The notes beneath the pieces were generated by a model. It was given only the letters and a program-made list of their open reading frames with translations. It was not told the origin of the DNA and made no database searches. A stretch of DNA of 64,000 nucleotides from an uncultured delta proteobacterium (GTDB taxonomy: Bacteria; Desulfobacterota; Binatia; UBA9968). A program made the translations under genes and the position numbers. Location of the stretch: assembly GCA_963745035.1 (NCBI GenBank), contig CAVUVW010000014.1, forward strand, positions 640,001-704,000, written 5' to 3'. Shown piece by piece: positions 34,559-44,534 of the stretch (positions within the stretch are counted from its first letter, which is position 1; each line of letters begins with the position of its first letter).

Positions 34559-35923
34559 TTAAGATGTGCGCAAAGACGTCGCGTGCCACCGGTCCATGTG
34601 ATAGCGCTCCGTTTCGGAAAGCGCCTCGGCCCGGTAGAAACGGTCATAAAACTCGGTGTCGAGATGGCAGGCTTGAAAACCAAGCACTGTGCGGAAGGGT
34701 GGCATGTACGCGGGAAAGCGACCGTAGCGATTGTAAATATATTCGCAATACGCAGTTGTAGCTTCTACCGCCGCGGAGCTGATTTCGGCGACGGCGTTGG
34801 TGACCGCCGCCGGCTCGCGCCATGCGCTATGCGCCGCGCCGCCGCGGAACAAGCCGCGCGCGCCATATTTCGTTTGAACCACGGCGCGCACGGCTTCTTT
34901 CATGCTCGCGTAGTACGGCGGGCAGTAAGGCTGGAGTAAAATTTCATTGTCCTGTTCCAAGCCCAAAGCATAGGGAACGCCTGGATCGCGCCCGAGAGCG
35001 CGCATCAACCCTCTGGCGAAAGTACCGGCGCCGAAGTACCGGCTCGCCGGCATCTCGGCCATGCGAAATCCGAGAGCCTGAAACCAGGCGAATTCGTGCT
35101 CGGCAAAGTTGGCAAAGCCGCCGAGGCCGATGGCGTGCGACATCAATCCTAAATTTTGCAGCATCATGCCTTGCTCGACGGTGACGAGCTCCGCGACCAT
35201 GAGCTCCAGGCGCTGCACCGTAAACACGCGGCCACCGGCGGGGTCGTCATGCAAATGCCCGCCCTTGCTGCGCGCGAAACGGTCCAGACCAGCGGCGCGA
35301 AATCCCGCGCGCTCGTCAATCACAAATGCGCCGCTATGCTCGTCGAACACGTCGAGCAATCCGTTGATGTACATGAAAGTCAACTCGTTGATCGGCAAAA
35401 AATACGTCGTTCCCGGGGCATACAGAGACCAGCGGTTCACGTTGACGTTGAACATCGGCGCCAGCGGAGGCGCCGCGCGGCCGTCTTTGATCTTGACTCG
35501 CATGCGCCGGTACAGCTCGGTGAACTGCCGCTGCTGCGCTTGGTCGAGCAAGGCGTGAATTTCCTGCGGCGGAAAATCTTGCGGGCGCTTGATCAGGTAA
35601 GCGGCATCGTCGTTGATCACAACCAATGAGACGGTTTGTATGGCGTCGCCGCTGGCGATCGTGCGGCCGAGCGCGCGCGCCACGATGGCACCGCCTTGCC
35701 CTTCGGCAAAGGACAGGTCGAGTAGAGCGAATCCCGTGATGCCGCAGGCGGCGTAAGTCAGCAGCGCTTCTTCTTCCTCGGTCAACGGAAACGAACGGTG
35801 CCGGCTGTCGTAGGCCAGGGGCCCGCTTGCCATCTTCATGCCCAAACCAAAGCGCCGCGAGCGCCGCTTGATCAGCGCGTCGAGGAGCGGATAACCGGCC
35901 CATGGCAGGCTCGTTTCAGACAT
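34559..35923 (-). CDS. Nitroreductase-fold (SagB/ThcOx-like) uncharacterised protein
   Basis: LIKRRSRRF, RTIASG and QNLGLMSHAIGLGG resemble FMN-binding nitroreductase-superfamily motifs. Confidence 0.65.
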   Translation of the reverse strand: MSETSLPWAGYPLLDALIKRRSRRFGLGMKMASGPLAYDSRHRSFPLTEEEEALLTYAACGITGFALLDLSFAEGQGGAIVARALGRTIASGDAIQTVSLVVINDDAAYLIKRPQDFPPQEIHALLDQAQQRQFTELYRRMRVKIKDGRAAPPLAPMFNVNVNRWSLYAPGTTYFLPINELTFMYINGLLDVFDEHSGAFVIDERAGFRAAGLDRFARSKGGHLHDDPAGGRVFTVQRLELMVAELVTVEQGMMLQNLGLMSHAIGLGGFANFAEHEFAWFQALGFRMAEMPASRYFGAGTFARGLMRALGRDPGVPYALGLEQDNEILLQPYCPPYYASMKEAVRAVVQTKYGARGLFRGGAAHSAWREPAAVTNAVAEISSAAVEATTAYCEYIYNRYGRFPAYMPPFRTVLGFQACHLDTEFYDRFYRAEALSETERYHMDRWHATSLRTS

Positions 35924-36118: not shown

Positions 36119-37714
36119 TCACAAGCGAATCAAGCCGGCGCTCATAAGCGCCTGCCCGGTCAGCCCGATGCCAAAAAACACGATGAATGCTGACGACGTG
36201 AGCGGCAGCCAGCGGGTGAGTAGCTGTCCTTCACCCTGGAACCGTGCCATAAAGCGGCGCGCGTAGACCATCAGCAGCCCAACGGCGATCAGCACGGCAG
36301 CCAAGCCGACGCTAAAGGCCACGATCAGCAACAGGCCGAAGCCGACCCGCTGCAGTGACACCGCGCTCAGCAGGACGACCAGCGCAGCGGGACATGGAAC
36401 GATCCCGCCGCTGATGCCGAGCGTGAGAAGCTCCCGCGGCGACACTGCATGGCGATGATGATGTGAATCGCCATGCGCATGGTGATGGCCATGCCCGGAA
36501 TGATGGTGATGATCCTGATCATGATGACCATGATCAGGACGATGATGTGCCGCTTGTTTCACGCCAAGCCGGCGCACGAACAGAACGATGCCCAAAACGA
36601 TAATCATCACGCCGGAAGTTAGCGCCAGCCAGGGATAAAGTTTCTCCGGCACGACCTGCGCGGATGCGTAAAGCACGATGCCGCCGAGCAGGTAGACTGC
36701 GGCGGTATGCGATGCGGTGACGATAAGCCCAAGAAGCAAGGCGTGCTTCGCCGTCCCGCGGGAGCCGATGAGATACGCCGCCACCAGCGTTTTACCGTGG
36801 CCCGGCTCGAGAGCATGAAACGCGCCGAGGGCGGCGGCGACGAGCAGGGCAAATAGAATCATCGACCAGTTCAACTGTTTGGTCGCGATCAGCTCGGTAA
36901 AAGAATTCTTCGGCGTCAATTGCCGGTTTGGCCGCAGCGCAGGAGCGGGCTCTTCAATGCTAGATTCCGCCGCCTTACTCTCCTGCGGCGCGACGACTGC
37001 GGCAACCGGAACAGCCGGCGCGGCGGCTTTGGCAACGTCCGCGGCGACCGATCGACGGGACGGAACGACTGCGGACGATTCGTTCCTCACCGTTACAGCG
37101 GCACCCCCGACGGCGAAGCTCAATCTCACCTCCAATACCTGCGGTGGTGCATTCAGCAGATCGCTGGGATAGTCCGATAGTTGTGCGCTTTGGTCTTTGG
37201 CCGGCACCGAGCTTTGGATCAACGACGCACCATTCTCGGCGCCGGCGATCACTTCCTTCCAACCCGCGCGCCCGGGGAAATTTCCATCACGATAGAAGAG
37301 CTCGCGGCGTCCGGCCGGAGAATTGTCGAAGCTGCCCTTGAAGACAGTGCCGATTTTCATCGTCGGCAGCGCGCCCGCTCCTTCGGGAAAGAGAATCTTC
37401 CGAGACTCCAGGCGCAGCGGGATTTTTTTGCCGTCCACTTCGAGCTGCAAGCCGTCGCGCAGAGCCGCCGCCTTGCCATCGAGATAACTCGATACGCCGG
37501 GCGCACCGGGCGCCGGCGCAATGCCGTTCTGCTGGATTTCCTGAAAAGTCGGAATCTCCGCCATATCGACGATGTAGCGGAGCTCGACCTCGTCCTTGCC
37601 AACGCGCAGTGCGGAATACTGACTGATACTGAAATTGCCCAGCGGGTGGGCGGAAACGTCGGCGGCCCAGAAAAGCAATAAAGCGATCAAACCGGCCGTC
37701 GCTCGGGCGCGCAT
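36119..37714 (-). CDS. RcnA/HoxN-like Ni/Co transporter with N-terminal exported domain and His-rich loop
   Basis: FHALEPGHGKT, HTAAV, poly-His loop, GIVPCPAALVVLL, FSVGLA. Signal peptide followed by HPLGNFS. Confidence 0.88.
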   Translation of the reverse strand: MRARATAGLIALLLFWAADVSAHPLGNFSISQYSALRVGKDEVELRYIVDMAEIPTFQEIQQNGIAPAPGAPGVSSYLDGKAAALRDGLQLEVDGKKIPLRLESRKILFPEGAGALPTMKIGTVFKGSFDNSPAGRRELFYRDGNFPGRAGWKEVIAGAENGASLIQSSVPAKDQSAQLSDYPSDLLNAPPQVLEVRLSFAVGGAAVTVRNESSAVVPSRRSVAADVAKAAAPAVPVAAVVAPQESKAAESSIEEPAPALRPNRQLTPKNSFTELIATKQLNWSMILFALLVAAALGAFHALEPGHGKTLVAAYLIGSRGTAKHALLLGLIVTASHTAAVYLLGGIVLYASAQVVPEKLYPWLALTSGVMIIVLGIVLFVRRLGVKQAAHHRPDHGHHDQDHHHHSGHGHHHAHGDSHHHRHAVSPRELLTLGISGGIVPCPAALVVLLSAVSLQRVGFGLLLIVAFSVGLAAVLIAVGLLMVYARRFMARFQGEGQLLTRWLPLTSSAFIVFFGIGLTGQALMSAGLIRL

Positions 37715-37718
37715 CGTC

Positions 37719-39029
37719 CTATCTCCCTTCCGCGGATTGAGTCGCGGCGACTCGCGCGCTGTCGCCGTCCATCTGCTGCAGAATTCTCTGCGCCTGTTCG
37801 GCGAAAAGAATATGAAAGTGGGGATTGGTCACGAGCGCGCGGCTTAAAAATTTTCTTGCCTCGTCGAGCTCGCCCAGGCCGTAATGGATCATGCCGGCGT
37901 GAAAAAACAGCTTCGCATCACGGGTTCCGAGCTTGAGCGCTTTATGGATCGCTTCCCGCGCCGCTTTCAGCTCGCCGTTTTTATACAGGTTCCAGGCCAA
38001 GACATCGTATGCGTAGATATCGCGCCGATAGTCCAGTTCCCGCCGGGCCAGCTCCAGGCTTTCCTTCGGATTCATATCGTGATCGGCGTAAAAATAAGCG
38101 AGCTCGCGGTTGTAGAGCGCCTTATTGAGCGCGTTGAGCCTGCCGACGTATTCGACCAATGCGTATTGCTGGCGGGCCAATTCGGGCTTGCCGACTCTCT
38201 CGTAGATCTCGCCTAGCGCTGCGGCGTATTCCGGCATCGGCAAGATCGCGAGCGCTTTTCGATAAAGTTCGATGGCTTCGTCGTACCTTTTCTCCGCCGC
38301 GCGTACCTGCGCCAGGCCGGAGAGTCCACGATAGTAATTGGCATGGGTATCGAGGGATTGCCGAAAACAGGTCTCGGCTTTCTCCAAGTCACCGGCGACG
38401 AAGTGCTCCATACCGAGCTGCCACTCCGCCCACGCGACGCTTTCCGCGGGCTGCTTGGCGATTTTACCAGTGCCAACCGCCCGCTCCAGATCGGCGATCG
38501 CCCCCGCGCTATCACCGCGCAAGCTTTTCAGTCCCGCCAGCCGGCTATAGGAATATAAACTTTGATCCAGCTCCATCATGTAAGCGTAAGCCGCTTGCGC
38601 CTCGGCGTATTGGCCCACCTCCAAGAGCGCGTCGCCCAAGACACCGTAGGCATCGGCGTCTTCGCCATCTCTTTCGATCGCTTGGCGCGCGTAGAGCGCG
38701 GCGGGCGCGAACTCGTGGCGCGAGTAATGGACGTAGGCCAGATGGCGCAGCGCGCCGGCGTTGTGCGGCGCGAGCTGCAAAGTTCGTTTGAGCGCCTCTT
38801 CGGCGCGGTTGAAGTAACTTGGCTCGCCGGTCTCGCGGGCCTTGCGAATGAACGCGTCGGCGAGTCCCAAGTAAACGTTGGCGTTGCGCGAATGGCGCCG
38901 GAGCAATTGTTGGTAGTAAGCGATCTGGTTGTCGGTTCTAATCTGCTGCGCCACCGCTAAATGCGGTGTTACACTGAAAACGCCGAGCAGGACTAGCATC
39001 ATGGTGATCGGGCGTTGCTGGAAGTTCAT
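37719..39029 (-). CDS. Exported tetratricopeptide repeat protein
   Basis: Signal peptide and multiple TPR motifs (AYGVLGDALLEVGQYAEA, YDVLAWNLYKNG, FHAGMIHYGLG). Confidence 0.88.
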   Translation of the reverse strand: MNFQQRPITMMLVLLGVFSVTPHLAVAQQIRTDNQIAYYQQLLRRHSRNANVYLGLADAFIRKARETGEPSYFNRAEEALKRTLQLAPHNAGALRHLAYVHYSRHEFAPAALYARQAIERDGEDADAYGVLGDALLEVGQYAEAQAAYAYMMELDQSLYSYSRLAGLKSLRGDSAGAIADLERAVGTGKIAKQPAESVAWAEWQLGMEHFVAGDLEKAETCFRQSLDTHANYYRGLSGLAQVRAAEKRYDEAIELYRKALAILPMPEYAAALGEIYERVGKPELARQQYALVEYVGRLNALNKALYNRELAYFYADHDMNPKESLELARRELDYRRDIYAYDVLAWNLYKNGELKAAREAIHKALKLGTRDAKLFFHAGMIHYGLGELDEARKFLSRALVTNPHFHILFAEQAQRILQQMDGDSARVAATQSAEGR

Positions 39030-39094
39030 CGGGTCGCTCCCTTTTGGAATTGGCCGGAGGGAGAGATCACTCTCCGCTCCGGCATGAGATAACG

Positions 39095-40684
39095 TTACTG
39101 CTCGACGCACGGCGCTCCGGTCGACTGCACGCAGTCGATGTGCCGCCGGCCGCGGCCGTCATAGGGAGTCGGTAGATAGGGAAACTCCTTGGCGATGCCG
39201 TTCAAGGTCACATCGAGGCGGTTGCCGGCGATCATTCCATAGCCCGGCCCGTCACTGACGCCCGCGCCGGGCGCGCCGCCGAGGAAATTGACGCCGTCGC
39301 CGGCCAGACCCGCGATATAGTTGGCGCCGCCGACCACGCGCAACGCGATATCGGTGACATCGTCATTGGGTCGCCGGCCGTTAGGGAATCCGGCCGCATC
39401 GTCGGCCAAACCGCCGAGCCGTTTCTGGTTTTCCGGCTGGACCGGCGCCGCTTTCAAATTGAGGCGCAGCAATTCGGCGCACGGGCTCCCGCAGTTGTTG
39501 CCGCTCAAGGGCTGACCCGTATATTTTAGAAATACGCTCATCAAGTCGGTGCGCGGCGTCGCCGTCACCGGCACGCTGAAGATCAGCTCCAGCGCCAGCG
39601 CGATCGAGGGATTTTTGTAGAACTCCTGGAACTTCGCTTCGCCTTCCGGTTCTTGAGAGTTCCAGAAATCTTTCGCCGAAGTATCGATGATCAGCTCGTT
39701 CACCAGCGGATTGGCCAAGCGCGACACCTGAACCCACGGGCCGGCGAGTTTCGTCGTACCGTCGCCTTTTAACTGCTTGATCTTCTGTTTCGCGGTCGAC
39801 GCATACATGCCGATCACCGCTGCGGCGGTTTGCTCTGCCGACTTGCCGTCCTGGGTGATGCGCGTAATCGGCACCTCAATAACGATGCTGTTCACGTTGG
39901 TGCCGCTGAACCGGTTGATGCCGAACGGATCTCGGCCGTCGTTGCCGTCTTCCGCCGCGCTGAGCAACGGCGGGAAGCGGCGCAGGTTGGCCGTGTCGAA
40001 CACCGCGCCGAGATCAATGTAGAAAGTTTCCGCGCGCTGCCCGGCGAATACTTTGATGCCGGTCGAGGCGTCGCTGTAGACGCCTTGGGACGCCAGGTCT
40101 TCATAATTCTTAAAAGTTGCCGGACCGACGTTGCTCGGCACCGCGATGAGCTTTTGGCCTCTGAACAGCTCGGTGCGCTTTTTGCCCCGCACTTCGGTGA
40201 CCGTGTAGGTTTGCCGGCGGGTCAAGCCCTCGGAACCCGGGCCATCGAGCTTGGTAATTCCTTGAAGCTCGGCGACCGGAATCTTCGGATTGCCGACATA
40301 AGCCAGGGGAAATTCCAGTTGTCCCAACGCCGGCCGGTTTTCCGTCTTGAAGCGAAATTCGTAGACGATGTCCTCCGCCTTGCCGTCCTGATTGTTATCG
40401 ATGTTGACGGTGTACAGCACCTCGTCGTCGAAGTTGAAATAGTTCGGGCCGTCGGCCGGCTCTTGGCCCGGGATCACGTTCATGATGAACACCGCCTTGC
40501 TCGGATCCTGCCAGCTGCGAAAGGCGTAGGTGTCGGTGTTGTCCGCCGCCGGGTCGAGGGCGATGAGCGGTGCCTCCCGATGGCTGGCGGCGCCGGCCGG
40601 CGGAGTCATGGTTGCAAGCGCCATGAGCGCGCTCAGCAAAACAGCGGTGGCCCGATGGATGGGTTTTTTCTTGACGGATTGCAT
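39095..40684 (-). CDS. DUF4331 domain-containing exported protein
   Basis: Signal peptide, then ASHREAP..DNTDTYAF, QVSRLANPLVNE, GFPNGRRPNDDVTD. Confidence 0.9.
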   Translation of the reverse strand: MQSVKKKPIHRATAVLLSALMALATMTPPAGAASHREAPLIALDPAADNTDTYAFRSWQDPSKAVFIMNVIPGQEPADGPNYFNFDDEVLYTVNIDNNQDGKAEDIVYEFRFKTENRPALGQLEFPLAYVGNPKIPVAELQGITKLDGPGSEGLTRRQTYTVTEVRGKKRTELFRGQKLIAVPSNVGPATFKNYEDLASQGVYSDASTGIKVFAGQRAETFYIDLGAVFDTANLRRFPPLLSAAEDGNDGRDPFGINRFSGTNVNSIVIEVPITRITQDGKSAEQTAAAVIGMYASTAKQKIKQLKGDGTTKLAGPWVQVSRLANPLVNELIIDTSAKDFWNSQEPEGEAKFQEFYKNPSIALALELIFSVPVTATPRTDLMSVFLKYTGQPLSGNNCGSPCAELLRLNLKAAPVQPENQKRLGGLADDAAGFPNGRRPNDDVTDIALRVVGGANYIAGLAGDGVNFLGGAPGAGVSDGPGYGMIAGNRLDVTLNGIAKEFPYLPTPYDGRGRRHIDCVQSTGAPCVEQ

Positions 40685-40744
40685 GGTCGATACCCCCTTC
40701 ATTTGCGTTTGTGTTTTTCGCGTCGTTCGCTTGAGCTCGCCGCA

Positions 40745-41989
40745 CTAGTGCTGGGCAAAGCGCTCCGGGAATTGCTTGGCGATCGCCGTGCCGAGCGGAT
40801 CGGCGATCATCGCCATGTGACTGGCGGCCATGCGCAGATTCGCATAGACCTTCTGCCACTCGCGGGCAGCCTGAGCATCGACCACGTCCTTGAGCGTAAT
40901 GATGTGCCCTTTGACCAGCTCGGCCACAGTGTTTTTGGGCAGGTTCGGATTCGCCGAGGCCAAGAATGCGCCGAAGTCCTCGCTGTAACTAATAAGATCG
41001 TTGACCGCCCTATCCTGCTTGGCTTTGTCTTTCGCCGCGAGGCCGGTCGTATAGTCGACGACGAAACCGATGTGCTTGCGCCACAACGGCAGGAAGGCTT
41101 TCTCGGCGTCGGCGCCGTATACCGAGCCGATCGCTTTGGCGATGTCGATGGAATTTTGGTCCAGCGCATTGGCCGCGGCTTTGAACTCCGCTTCGCGGCC
41201 GCCCAGCGCCGAACCCGTGGCCATGGCTGCGATGATCGCATGCTCGCGCAGCGCCATGTTCAGCGTCGTGCGCAAGGTGGCGGCGGGAGCATCCGGCGCG
41301 CCGGGGAACCGATTGGGGAATTGCTTGGCGATCGCCGCGGCAAGGGGATCGCCGATCATCTGCATGTGATGATACGCCGAGCGCGTCGCCGCATACGCCT
41401 TGGGCCAGTCGCCGGCGGCCTGCGCATCGACGACGTCTTTCAAGGTAAGAATATGACCTTTCACCAAATCGCCGACCGCGCTCTTCGGCAGGTGGGGATT
41501 GGCAGAGCTGAGAAACGCGCCGAAGTCCTGGCTGTAGCCGAGCAAATCGGCGACGGCCTTGTCCTGCTTCGCCTTGTCTTTCGTCGCCGCGCCGGTGGTG
41601 TAATCGACAAAAAAGCCGATGTGCTTGCGCCACAAGGGCAGGAACGCTTTCTCGGCGTCGGCGCCGTACACCGCGCCGATCGCCTTTGAAATATCGATGG
41701 AGTTGGCGTCGAGACCGCCGACGGCGCCCTTGAATGCCGCCTCGCGCCCGCCGAGCGCATGACTCGTCGCCACCGCCGCGATCAACACGTGCTCGCCCAA
41801 GAGCGCGTTTAGATTCGATCTGAGGTCTGCCGCCGTCCACTTGGTATCCTTGGCGTCCGTCATTGAGCCATGCATCGAGTGATGTTGCATGGGTCCTGAA
41901 GATCGATCCCAGCCCGTCTGGCCGCAACCCGATGAAACCAGCGCAGCCAAGACCGATCCGCCGATGATTCGTGCAACTTTGCTTTTCAT
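40745..41989 (-). CDS. Lipoprotein with two tandem helical repeats carrying conserved His
   Basis: Lipobox SSGC, His/Met-rich linker MQHHSMHGSM, two repeats each with EH, LWRKHIG, GH and HM. Confidence 0.85.
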   Translation of the reverse strand: MKSKVARIIGGSVLAALVSSGCGQTGWDRSSGPMQHHSMHGSMTDAKDTKWTAADLRSNLNALLGEHVLIAAVATSHALGGREAAFKGAVGGLDANSIDISKAIGAVYGADAEKAFLPLWRKHIGFFVDYTTGAATKDKAKQDKAVADLLGYSQDFGAFLSSANPHLPKSAVGDLVKGHILTLKDVVDAQAAGDWPKAYAATRSAYHHMQMIGDPLAAAIAKQFPNRFPGAPDAPAATLRTTLNMALREHAIIAAMATGSALGGREAEFKAAANALDQNSIDIAKAIGSVYGADAEKAFLPLWRKHIGFVVDYTTGLAAKDKAKQDRAVNDLISYSEDFGAFLASANPNLPKNTVAELVKGHIITLKDVVDAQAAREWQKVYANLRMAASHMAMIADPLGTAIAKQFPERFAQH

Positions 41990-42022
41990 GTTTTCCCTCC
42001 CGTGAATTGCCCTTTTTTGGAT

Positions 42023-42411
42023 CTAGCGAACCAGCACCTCGCCGCGCATGTGTTCGTGGCGCTCGCAGAAATAGCTGTACGTTCCCGGCTGAGCGAAAGT
42101 GAAGCTGAAGCTCCCGCCTTTGCCGTCCAGGGACGCCGCAAAACCATTTTCTTTTTTCTCGGCGGTGACGGTATGAAGGATCTCGTCTTCATTGACCCAG
42201 CTCACCAAGGTTCCCGGCCTCACTTCGATCCGTCCCGGTTGAAACTGGAAAAGTTTAATCGCCACATTGCCGAGCGGTTGCGGCTTGGCGCCTTCGACAA
42301 CCGCCGCTGGCTTCAGCGGCTCGTCGTCGCATTCGTCATGGCCCAGGCCGGAGCGGCCCACGCCAATATCATCGCCGCCACGGTGGTGAAAACTCTTTGC
42401 CTGCGCTTCAT
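42023..42411 (-). CDS. Cupredoxin (plastocyanin/amicyanin-like), one frameshift near 42340
   Basis: Signal peptide MKRRQR..AWA in one frame. Mature WVNEDEILHTV..YSYFCERHEHMRG (type-1 Cu H/C/H/M) in the next. GGAG RBS. Confidence 0.88.
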
Positions 42412-42460
42412 ATCTTCTCCTTTTTTCTGTTTGCCGACCCGCGCTGCCTTCTGTGGTGCT

Positions 42461-42488
42461 CTACGGCTGGATTCGGGAACTTGGATTT
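42461..42488 (-). promoter_or_regulatory. Putative ECF promoter AAATCC-N17-CGTAG for the cupredoxin-DUF4331 operon
   Basis: Minus strand AAATCC(42488-42483)-17 nt-CGTAG(42465-42461). The same hexamer, pentamer and spacing occur on the opposite strand. Confidence 0.7.
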
Positions 42489-42534
42489 GGCGCAGCAAAC
42501 TTTTCGGCGTGAAAAGAATTTTCTTGGATCGAAT

Positions 42535-42562
42535 AAATCCAAACCGCCGGGTCCGAACGTAG
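42535..42562 (+). promoter_or_regulatory. Putative ECF autoregulatory promoter AAATCC-N17-CGTAG
   Basis: AAATCC(42535-42540)-17 nt-CGTAG(42558-42562), upstream of the cupin-sigma-rskA operon. Confidence 0.7.
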
Positions 42563-42636
42563 GTAATACAGGCGCGGTTTGCGCCGTTCGATCGAACCCG
42601 GTTATAGTGGCCCGGCTCAATCGAACAGGTTGGCCT

Positions 42637-43194
42637 ATGGATCACGACAACTGGTTGGATTTAGTGGATATTTACGCTGCAGGCGCATTGGACGGCGACG
42701 AACTTAGCCGCTTCGAGGCGCATCTCTCTGCGGGCTGCCTGCAATGTCAGGCGCGTATTCGCGAGACTCGGGAAGCGCTGGCAGGCTTATCGGCCACGCT
42801 TGAACCGATCACCCCAGCAGACTCGGTTAAGGCAAGGCTCTTGGAGCGCATCGACTCCGAAAAGCCGGGCTTGGTCTACATTCCCGCCAACGAAGGCAAA
42901 TGGATCGACGTCGAGCCTGGAATTGTCGCTAAGATCTTAAACCTGGATACCGAACGGGGGCAGGTCACGGCCCTTGTGCGCATGGCGCCCGGTTCAGCCT
43001 ACGCCGATCATCGCCATCTGGGAACGGAAGAGGTTCTGGTCCTGGAGGGAAGCTGCTATTGCGGCGGGCGCCTGCTGCGGCCGGGCGACTATCACCGCGC
43101 CGAGGCCGGCAGCATTCATCTCGACACGCGCACCGACGAGGGTTCGCTCATGCTGGTCACCGCGCCGCTGCAAAAGGAAATGCTTGCGACCTGA
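42637..43194 (+). CDS. ChrR-like anti-sigma factor (zinc-finger N-terminus plus cupin)
   Basis: YAAGALD..HLSAGCLQC and cupin HRHLGTEEVLVLEG..GDYHRAEAGSIH. Confidence 0.85.
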   Translation: MDHDNWLDLVDIYAAGALDGDELSRFEAHLSAGCLQCQARIRETREALAGLSATLEPITPADSVKARLLERIDSEKPGLVYIPANEGKWIDVEPGIVAKILNLDTERGQVTALVRMAPGSAYADHRHLGTEEVLVLEGSCYCGGRLLRPGDYHRAEAGSIHLDTRTDEGSLMLVTAPLQKEMLAT

Positions 43195-43237
43195 CTCCAG
43201 TGATAGCACGTACGCTGATTCAATCGGAAGATCGGTG

Positions 43238-43801
43238 ATGACTGTCGAATCAATGAGCAGTTCTATTTCTTTGATTCAAAGAATCGGCGCCCAAAACCGC
43301 GACGCGTTCAGCCAGTTCTACGACCGCTATTCCCCGATCGTATATTCCCTGGCACTGCGCATGCTGAGAGCGCAATCCGATGCCGAAGATCTGCTGCAGG
43401 AAGTCTTTCTGCAAGTGTGGCGCCAGGCCACAGCCTACAACGCCGAGCGCGGCAGCCCGGAGGCTTGGTTGATCAACATCGCGCGCAGCCGGGCAATCGA
43501 TAAGCTCCGTTCCATACGTAGAAGAGAAAGAAGCTTTGTTTTGACCGATGATCCGGCCGCGGCGGAATCGCCGGACAACGTGGAAACGTCCGCTGGAGAA
43601 TCGGAAACTCGCTTGGCGATGAACAGCGCCCTGGCAAGTTTACCGGAAGCGCAGCGGCGCGTGCTCGAGTTGGCTTATTTTGACGGCTTGAGCCAGACGG
43701 AAATCGCCGCTCGGCTGGCGGAGCCGCTGGGAACGGTCAAAACCAGAATGCGCTCGGGGATTCTGCGTCTAAGAGGTATGCTTGGAACCCAGGCTGCATA
43801 A
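43238..43801 (+). CDS. ECF RNA polymerase sigma factor (SigK-like)
   Basis: DAEDLLQEVFLQVW, AWLINIARSRAID, LAYFDGLSQTEIA..PLGTVKTR. Confidence 0.93.
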   Translation: MTVESMSSSISLIQRIGAQNRDAFSQFYDRYSPIVYSLALRMLRAQSDAEDLLQEVFLQVWRQATAYNAERGSPEAWLINIARSRAIDKLRSIRRRERSFVLTDDPAAAESPDNVETSAGESETRLAMNSALASLPEAQRRVLELAYFDGLSQTEIAARLAEPLGTVKTRMRSGILRLRGMLGTQAA

Positions 43802-44534
43802 TGGCCACCGAACATGAACATTGGCGCGAGTGTAGCGACATCTACGCCCTCGGCGCGCTCGATGGCGAGGAACTGAAGAATTTTCAAGCTCATCTCGCCA
43901 CCGATTGCCCGACTTGCGAAGCCTACGTTCGCGACAGGGGCGAAACTCTGAACTTGCTGCACCGTTCGCTCCGCCCGTTGACACCGCCATCTGCCGTAAA
44001 GGCGCGCATCCTCCATCAGATCGATAACGATGCAGCGGTATCGATCGCTGCAAGAACATCTTCGCGCCCGCAGCTTTGGCGTCGCATGGCGGGAACCATC
44101 GCCGCGGCAATAGCGGGCGTCGTTCTCGCCGGCGGCTACTTCCATTTTCGCTACGAGCCGCGCCATACGGTTTATAGCGCCGTCGTCAATCTGTTGCGCG
44201 ATCCGTCGACTCGAGATCTACCGCTCCACGGCGCCGGACCGACACCGCAGGCAAGAGGACGTTTTCTCTGGAACGCATCGGGCGAAGGGCATATTTTCGT
44301 GACCAATCTTCCCGCCGCGCCGACGGGAAAAATGTACGCGGTCTGGACCATCGCGCAAAGCGCGGCGCCGCGTTACGTCGGCACGGTCAAGACCGATGCA
44401 GCGGGCCAAGGCGGCCTGCACATCAACACAGCGGACAATGAGGTCCCGTGGAAACCTTTGCCGTCACCCTCGAGCCCGACGGCACCACTGCCGCGCCCAC
44501 CGGTCCCATGGTCCTCGTATCGAAGCAGTCGTAA
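43801..44534 (+). CDS. Anti-sigma factor RskA-like, one frameshift near 44445
   Basis: YALGALD..HLATDCPTC, TM helix, NLPAAPTGKMYAVW. The RskA tail FAVTLEPDGTTAAPTGPMVL is in another frame ending at TAA 44534. Confidence 0.85.

Follow-up and report, generated by a model that had tools for sequence, protein, structure and literature searches.

The locus considered here is a divergent set of eight genes at positions 36119 to 44534 of a 64,000-nucleotide stretch of DNA (the window; contig CAVUVW010000014.1, positions 640,001 to 704,000) from a soil bacterium, with a Candidatus Binatia genome of 7.4 Mb in 28 contigs. Five minus-strand genes, encoding a permease, a tetratricopeptide repeat (TPR) protein, a DUF4331 protein, a two-repeat helical protein (the bundle) and a cupredoxin, lie opposite three plus-strand regulator genes. 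Several described systems resemble parts of this locus. A disulfide switch is described for SigK in the portion of PMC7509140 considered here. For the extracytoplasmic function (ECF) sigma factors, the supplement of PMC7826278 gives TGCATCTT/CGTA as the ECF18 promoters and ATC/CG as the ECF19 promoters, lists DUF4331 and DUF4394 as neighbours of ECF18 subgroups and DUF4331 also of ECF214s1, and has two sigma-4 cysteines conserved in ECF18 that are not defining for ECF19; one member of ECF18 has a role in resistance to Ni/Co. Anglerases bind Cu2+ at 62-74 nM, Ang-1 also binds Ni2+ at 220 nM, and for the His1 domains of related permeases Cu2+ is the best-bound metal (PMC12537917, abstract and one section). 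Designed three-stranded coils with a three-histidine (His3) site, TRI/GRW-H, bind Zn, Co or Cu and mimic anhydrase, nitrite reductase or superoxide dismutase (PMC13262294, in part). In the literature searched, outside which most subscription journals and supplements lay, no functional account of either module discussed below and no description of a six-helix copper bundle was found; DUF4331, PF14224 and DUF4394 had no main-text mention there, and the family was named in one supplement.

We tentatively prefer, with somewhat less than even confidence, the reading that the locus combines two separable modules under one SigK/RskA-type sigma factor, namely a trio that would capture Cu (or Ni) and a redox pair of the cupredoxin and a His3 bundle. 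The modules themselves are observed. The DUF4331-TPR-permease trio is a separable module, found in four phyla and mostly without cupredoxin and bundle, and the cupredoxin and bundle form a second module, mostly without DUF4331. Eleven other genomes of the genus provided 12 loci for comparison. In 11 of these the TPR gene comes directly after DUF4331, and the permease is there in 10, the misses being at contig ends. The cupredoxin and bundle are both present in six of these loci and both missing in five with full context, and the twelfth has neither within 4.5 kb upstream. In an even sample of 201 actinobacterial genomes (phylum taken as Actinomycetota), 45 carry DUF4331, 42 carry the bundle and 21 carry both, and the two are adjacent in none of these 21. 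Eighteen actinobacterial DUF4331 loci with 7 kb flanks, taken from the top 30 for their longer contigs, have TPR in 17/18 and the same His1-NicO permease in 15/18; the trio is complete in 15/18, and none has a bundle or cupredoxin within the flanks. In Pseudomonadota a DUF4331 match was found in 11/301 genomes, and neither bundle nor cupredoxin is present at the seven loci considered. The cupredoxin is absent at 8/8 DUF4331 loci beyond the genus and actinobacterial sets. A DUF4331 search across the phylum of the source genome gave 4/301, two of them weak. The source genome has one copy each of DUF4331 and the bundle.

The bundle is present in 36 of 151 Methylomirabilota genomes. Its loci were compared in a set of 58 with 1.5 kb flanks (the 30 actinobacterial and 28 Methylomirabilota loci with the best scores), and an adjacent same-strand cupredoxin was found at 38, all 38 with a C-x-H-x-M type-1 loop. 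Fusions of bundle and cupredoxin, P0086 for example, occur in 13 of 43 homologues chosen for length or name. A preliminary description of this DNA had proposed a fixed five-gene assembly with the cupredoxin as partner of DUF4331. The co-occurrence it suggested as a check was found for the trio and for the cupredoxin-bundle pair, and not for all five as one unit; the constant partner of the cupredoxin is the bundle. Two Methylomirabilota loci (L198 and L199) have a third order, DUF4331-TPR-permease-second permease-bundle. The second permease in these loci (L198:7878-8567, L199:7954-8646) is a smaller NicO-family protein with RHALDADH, located between the His1 permease and the bundle. The share of genomes with DUF4331, bundle present vs absent, is 21/42 vs 24/159 in the actinobacterial sample and 11/36 vs 14/115 in Methylomirabilota; these values are uncorrected for kinship and are not used as support. 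Three genomes flagged as unpublished (G413, G453, G485) contribute up to four loci to some tallies, and the conclusions are independent of these loci.

The modules probably share one SigK/RskA-type regulon, because in many genomes where they are unlinked they carry the same promoter-like motif. The divergent gap of 225 nucleotides contains AATCC-N17-CGTA on both strands, a predicted ECF promoter for the five-gene operon at 42462..42487 (minus) and one for the regulator genes, suggesting autoregulation, at 42536..42561 (plus). The window has four matches vs 0.66 expected, the other two being within genes. In 17 other loci, AATCC-N16/17-CGTA faces the operon in 16 and the sigma gene in 15. A relaxed form (ATCC-N16/17-CG[TA]A, sense strand, within 520 nucleotides upstream) precedes 27/27 Methylomirabilota bundle loci, one of the 28 being left out for its short flank; the antisense strand gave 0 and six other spacings gave 0-5. 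For the actinobacterial bundle loci it was found at 11/16 with a linked cupredoxin vs 0/12 without (2/30 left out), and it lies upstream of 18/30 actinobacterial DUF4331 loci. The motif agrees with the ECF18/19 promoters, with ATC at -35 and CG/CGTA at -10. Scans for sigma-70 promoters and terminators gave results at or below chance. The expectation of an ECF-linked, extracytoplasmic, metal-themed set was borne out by its recurrence in other genomes with this conserved back-to-back motif. The term self-contained was too strong, since a second back-to-back pair (AATCC-N16-CGTA) lies elsewhere in the genome upstream of a secreted DUF4394 gene (C14:798141-799078; L151:5201-6082). The motif is retained before the DUF4394 orthologue in L024, and this gene is likely a further member of the regulon of the same sigma factor.

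The sigma factor (43238..43801, plus strand; Sigma70_r2/r4) is SigK-like. Its best NCBIfam matches, PRK12519 (185 bits) and SigK (167 bits), score below the family cut-offs. It contains no cysteine, therefore the thiol-disulfide switch of SigK cannot operate, and the redox sensing suggested for it in this form is ruled out; the cysteine pair of ECF18 is likewise absent. The RskA-like membrane anti-sigma (43801..44534, plus; RskA_C 3e-9) is at position +1 and has one transmembrane segment. Upstream of the sigma gene is a soluble ChrR-like zinc-binding anti-sigma (ZAS) protein with a cupin domain (42637..43194, plus; Cupin_7 4e-21, zf-HC2). It scores 34.4 bits against ChrR TIGR02451 (cut-off 124.5). 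Both anti-sigmas carry H-x4-C-x2-C, so the finger of the ZAS-cupin protein is not the H-x3-C-x2-C type. In the genus loci the divergent sigma is present in 11/12 and the ZAS-cupin in 7/12, hence the latter is optional. Locus L045 has two tandem sigma-RskA pairs divergent from the operon (L045:4323-7858).

The bundle (40745..41989, minus) is a probable lipoprotein of 414 residues. Nothing in Pfam or NCBIfam matches it, its ESM Atlas relatives are only in unnamed clusters, and clustering at 50% leaves 2,067 representatives of the family, which may constitute a new metalloprotein class. AlphaFold2 with 141 sequences predicts six helices per repeat with a predicted local distance difference test (pLDDT) of 97.4. 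Compared with itself at 120 offsets, the family profile scores highest at 56 and 112 residues (z 3.97 and 3.89), therefore one repeat consists of three helical hairpins. His67, His123 and His179 are at the equivalent position of the three hairpins (His250/306/362 in repeat 2), and Asn96, Tyr152 and His208-Met209 form a second in-register set. Conservation in 279 aligned repeats is high for E66 (88%), H67 (95%), N96 (94%), W120 (98%), H123 (92%), Y130 (94%) and H179 (92%), with 73% for H208 and 78% for M209; all three histidines are kept in 237 of 273 repeats. These three are mid-helix on the buried side, 8-36 degrees off the hydrophobic face, and H208 is on the flank (96 degrees). Covarying pairs (75-190, 68-182, 67-120, 123-179 and 124-183) join helices 1, 3 and 5, and the pair 65-206 packs helix 6 onto helix 1. 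Each repeat is thus modelled as a parallel three-helix core, likely with a His3 metal site, surrounded by three outer helices. The full ten-residue signature is found in 60/81 repeats from cupredoxin-linked loci vs 18/40 from unlinked loci, which often have Gln for His208.

Sequence and profile searches of the bundle against the PDB gave nothing significant, and Foldseek gave no match for its model at E 0.001. The best VIA-align hits (Z 9.2 and 8.8) were to designed proteins, including the six-helix barrel 8qad (root-mean-square deviation 4.9 A), within background for a two-repeat model that was unsplit. Ferritin-like, hemerythrin and CopM/DUF305 families gave no Pfam match and were not among the Foldseek and VIA-align matches listed. 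CopM and Csp are the named parallels for an unlikely but serious alternative, in which the bundle buffers or stores copper and the set is a Cu/Ni tolerance response with the RcnA-like permease exporting, the modules and regulon being the same. The bundle occurs in 1, 2, 3 or 4 copies per chain, which suits capacity. However, one predicted site per 180 residues would make a poor store, and the invariant second-shell Trp, Tyr and Asn resemble a tuned site. Csp copper storage proteins are Cys-lined four-helix bundles, and a Csp-type store in particular was rejected since the single cysteine of the bundle sits in the lipobox and each repeat has six helices. A lipobox-like cysteine was found in 84 of 113 close homologues with a loose pattern; the single-repeat forms of the genus lack this cysteine. 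Natural single-repeat bundles are found in L026, L031 and L032. Six homologues (P0300, P0372, P0379, P0394, P0268 and P0279) are fused to Cu_amine_oxidN1, LysM or sortase domains, and the fusions to the first of these explain misleading copper amine oxidase names in databases. Loci L107-L121 contain a divergent actinobacterial subfamily, mostly without a neighbouring cupredoxin or promoter motif and often with one degenerate repeat and Gln for His208, which may have another function.

The cupredoxin (42023..42411, minus; Copper-bind E 3e-11) is a secreted amicyanin-like type-1 protein. It is assigned to type 1 by a Copper-bind score above cut-off and a complete His...Cys-His-Met set; the ligands H56, C92, H95 and M98 are invariant in 48 rows, with the loop Cys-x2-His-x2-Met. 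It scores 41.6 bits against amicyanin TIGR02657, below the equivalog cut-off of 110.2. Its profile best matches the C-terminal domains of copper nitrite reductase (CuNiR; 9cck 6e-25, 6hbe 2e-18) among solved structures, followed by amicyanin (1e-17). The type-2 site of copper nitrite reductase sits between cupredoxin-fold domains. The bundle is all-helical and the CuNiR resemblance is limited to its small partner, so the pair does not have the architecture of copper nitrite reductase.

Some related loci contain passenger genes. A secreted truncated globin (Bac_globin) follows the permease directly in five loci (L027:4167-4634, L047:14753-15223, L026:5672-6073, and partial in L028 and L030), and in L025 the place taken by the cupredoxin and bundle in other relatives is occupied by a gene of the cytochrome P460 family (L025:10976-11400), which is preceded by a motif of its own. 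These genes bear on a distinctly unlikely explanation, in which nitrosative or oxidative stress induces the regulon and the cupredoxin and bundle together form a copper enzyme with nitrite, NO or superoxide as its substrate. Amicyanin-like domains are generic, however, and amicyanin scores nearly as well as CuNiR. The promoter motif was not found upstream of the globin genes, the sigma factor has no redox cysteines, and neither globin nor P460 has a match in the source genome.

DUF4331 (39095..40684, minus; PF14224 E 1e-112) is a secreted protein with a predicted mature start of A-S-H. The histidine at predicted mature position 3 is invariant in 94/94 rows (ASH, SSH, ANH, GGH) after an AxA-type site, the cleavage site being itself predicted. 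A free X-X-His N-terminus is the amino-terminal copper- and nickel-binding (ATCUN) motif, and the N-terminus of DUF4331 is likely an ATCUN-like Cu/Ni tip. In 34 distant rows the only other histidine is conserved at 78%, Cys and Met are unconserved, and ten Asp/Glu besides E5 are conserved at 95% or more. The AlphaFold2 model (pLDDT 87, predicted template modelling score 0.91) has a beta-sandwich core with helical additions. VIA-align gave weak CBM9/DOMON-like matches (7uwu Z 6.7; 2ivf_C Z 5.2; 4jpq and 1i82 Z 5.0), within background for an unsplit model of 497 residues, and Foldseek gave no match at E 0.001. A redox centre built from several histidines accounts for these data less well than does a tip that catches metal together with an acidic site for calcium, sugar or metal.

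The preliminary description had DUF4331 as a metalloenzyme matured by the TPR protein and the permease, with the cupredoxin as electron partner in a single five-protein line. Such a line is very unlikely. All five genes are tightly packed here (intergenic gaps of 4, 65, 60 and 33 nucleotides for permease-TPR, TPR-DUF4331, DUF4331-bundle and bundle-cupredoxin) and in related loci, the tip histidine and the acidic residues could form a site, and the weak match 2ivf_C is a DOMON-type haem subunit. However, the cupredoxin is missing from most DUF4331 loci, the bundle is never adjacent in the 21 actinobacterial genomes with both, and the lack of any invariant His, Cys or Met beyond the tip argues against an enzyme of this family that is supplied by the cupredoxin. 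The least probable explanation weighed, hardly to be expected, is that the bundle binds Zn, Fe or haem, or that DUF4331 is a calcium- or carbohydrate-binding surface protein, the metal-capture theme being partly coincidental. The best DUF4331 fold matches are indeed carbohydrate-binding sandwiches (7uwu, 4jpq, 1i82), and the His, Met, Tyr and Trp of the bundle could ligate haem. The binding of Zn and Co by designed His3 coils also points this way (PMC13262294, in part). Against it, the bundle is tightly linked and fused to type-1 copper domains, and an N-terminal histidine occurs on three different operon proteins.

The earlier claim of N-terminal histidines was upheld for the cupredoxin (His directly after the signal peptide in 6/6 genus proteins), DUF4331 and the permease, where they are conserved, and failed for the TPR protein and the bundle. 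Export signals were assessed by eye, by hydropathy and by conservation. The TPR protein (37719..39029, minus) has many TPR Pfam matches and a hydrophobic N-terminal signal or anchor (residues 8-26), and it is likely a scaffold.

The permease (36119..37714, minus; Pfam NicO 9e-17, DsbD_2 4e-7) has an exported N-domain with a His-Pro-Leu-Gly start; HP[LM]G is found in 33 of 35 relatives. The proposed poly-His loop is real, with 18 His in 40 residues (390-422 region). The membrane part has a HALEPGH-type motif at position 300, which we take to be the first-helix motif of the RcnA family, and it scores 138.6 bits against PRK10019 (RcnA), under the cut-off of 195. The HoxN/NiCoT second-helix signature is HA-x-DADH. 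It is absent from the translation, so a HoxN-type importer was rejected and only the RcnA-like half of the suggested RcnA/HoxN assignment stands; the signature is present in the second permease of L198/L199. Neither DUF4331 nor the permease gave significant sequence or profile matches in the PDB. For the N-domain, Pfam and PDB sequence searches were negative, and in the ESM Atlas it falls in unnamed clusters with a weak DUF1007 lead at 0.77. Against the Ig-like Ang-1/Ang-2 domains it had no 9GCE sequence match, but His1-HupE/UreJ-2 controls missed 9GCE too, and a profile comparison gave E 0.26 in a test that is insensitive. As the direction of transport, uptake is only slightly favoured. The equivalent slot holds uptake-type HupE/UreJ-2 families at 5/7 proteobacterial DUF4331 loci, which counts against the buffer and efflux alternative; that the best NCBIfam match is the RcnA efflux family and that the loop carries 18 His count for it, as does the action of an ECF18 member in Ni/Co resistance (PMC7826278 supplement).

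The genes are observed, as are their distribution in modules and the conservation of the motif and of ligand-type residues; from these we infer how the two-module locus may work. An envelope or metal/thiol signal would free the sigma factor from RskA or the ZAS-cupin protein, and the freed sigma would transcribe in both directions from the back-to-back predicted promoters. The X-X-His tip of DUF4331 and the His1 domain of the permease would bind Cu(II)/Ni(II) outside the cytoplasm with the TPR protein as scaffold, and the permease would carry the ion across the inner membrane. The bundle would hold a His3 copper centre that exchanges electrons with the type-1 copper of the cupredoxin, and the two proteins would then be the part of the regulon that does redox work or uses copper. 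A bolder version is doubtful, though plausible: the bundle would represent copper redox enzymes of a natural class that is widespread but not yet described, single-chain six-helix proteins with a pseudo-three-fold His3 type-2 centre and their own type-1 cupredoxin, supplied with Cu from the co-regulated ATCUN/His1 capture module. Several points weigh against the two-module reading. The His3 site is based on symmetry, helical face and covariation with weak scores (0.16-0.17). The families to which the permease is related transport Ni/Co, and RcnA, the nearest one with a name, is an exporter. No cupredoxin lies within 1.5 kb at 20 of the 58 bundle loci, many of which keep all three histidines, and no DUF4331 was seen in 25 of the 36 bundle-bearing Methylomirabilota genomes, which are incomplete. 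Kin are not independent in any of the locus counts. Finally, the 9-base motif is near background genome-wide (94 matches at spacings 16-17 vs 29-49 per control spacing), so that only its placement and conservation carry information, and scanning the whole genome did not delimit the regulon.

All eight genes, five of them close-set on the minus strand and divergent from the cupin anti-sigma, ECF sigma and RskA-like genes as first described, were verified by open reading frames and Pfam/NCBIfam profile search. Two are frameshifted. The signal peptide of the cupredoxin (ATG 42411) is out of frame by one base with its HDE start, the shift being near 42347. The C-terminus of RskA is shifted near 44442, and relatives encode it in the shifted frame ending at 44534. 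Both are most likely assembly errors, because the relatives are intact (cupredoxin 6/6, RskA 8/8) and near-identical contigs of other public runs carry the extra base (X5 and X2 near 42347; X1, X2, X5 and X7 at 44442-44445). The presence of these bases in other runs led to rejection of pseudogenes; the shifts may instead be private mutations. Contigs of three metatranscriptome runs cover the locus as scattered pieces at low depth.

Other genes were observed near the operon and its relatives. Downstream (34559-35923, minus) is a 454-residue protein with no Pfam/NCBIfam match, which at 59-84% identity also follows the operon in L023, L026, L038 and L045; the RRSRRF stretch in its N-terminal part may be reminiscent of nitroreductases. 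A small unnamed family with a weak DUF5729 match is inserted in the operon in two loci (L022:10674-11096, L029:7399-7887) and has 15 matches in the source genome. Elsewhere in that genome (C19:34894-37575), another ECF sigma and anti-sigma are divergent from a secreted repeat protein with a terminal cupredoxin domain.

Neither module has an assigned function, and both are frequent in soil lineages that are abundant and for the most part uncultured. What was a vague metal operon is now narrowed to specific candidates: three histidines in a small soluble protein, one electron partner and one promoter. The new elements are the proposed three-fold His3 reading of the bundle and the putative promoter common to both modules. 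If the reading is true, a natural His3 helical copper site matters to bioinorganic chemistry and enzyme design, and the bundle would be the counterpart in nature of designed His3 copper catalysts, convergent with the type-1/type-2 architecture of nitrite reductase. The shared promoter would offer SigK-type sigmas, whose signal is still unknown (PMC7509140, in part), a concrete metal-linked regulon outside mycobacteria.

Compared with the SigK/RskA pair of M. tuberculosis and the ECF18/ECF19/ECF214 clade (PMC7509140, in part; PMC7826278 supplement), the regulator genes have the same RskA-like protein at +1 and the same ATC/-35 and CG(TA)/-10 elements. They differ in the absence of sigma cysteines, the extra soluble ZAS-cupin protein upstream, and predicted targets that are metal-binding modules and not fasciclins. 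The permease shares the HALEPGH motif, His-rich loop and PCP motif with RcnA (PRK10019), but it is below the cut-off and has an exported His1 domain of ~200 residues plus a linker at its N-terminus. In this exported domain fused to a Ni-type permease it resembles the anglerase-permeases Ang-1/Ang-2 on HupE/UreJ-2 (9GCE), for which no DUF4331-TPR or His-bundle partner is described in the abstract and one section of PMC12537917. The proteobacterial DUF4331 loci have a His1 plus HupE/UreJ-2 gene in the same slot, as in the anglerase-permeases, whereas the membrane part here is NicO/DsbD_2 and RcnA-like with a His-rich loop. The cupredoxin is like amicyanin (1aac) and the CuNiR C-terminal domains (9cck, 6hbe) in its small type-1 site and C-x2-H-x2-M loop. 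Unlike these it has an extra His-acidic N-terminal tail, and its partner is an all-helical His3 protein and not methylamine dehydrogenase or a cupredoxin-fold enzyme. The bundle is comparable to the TRI/GRW-H coils by analogy and not homology, with three predicted parallel helices that each place one histidine at the same level. It differs from the designed coils in being a natural single chain, with three extra helices that add Asn, Tyr and His-Met, and in having its own type-1 copper partner.

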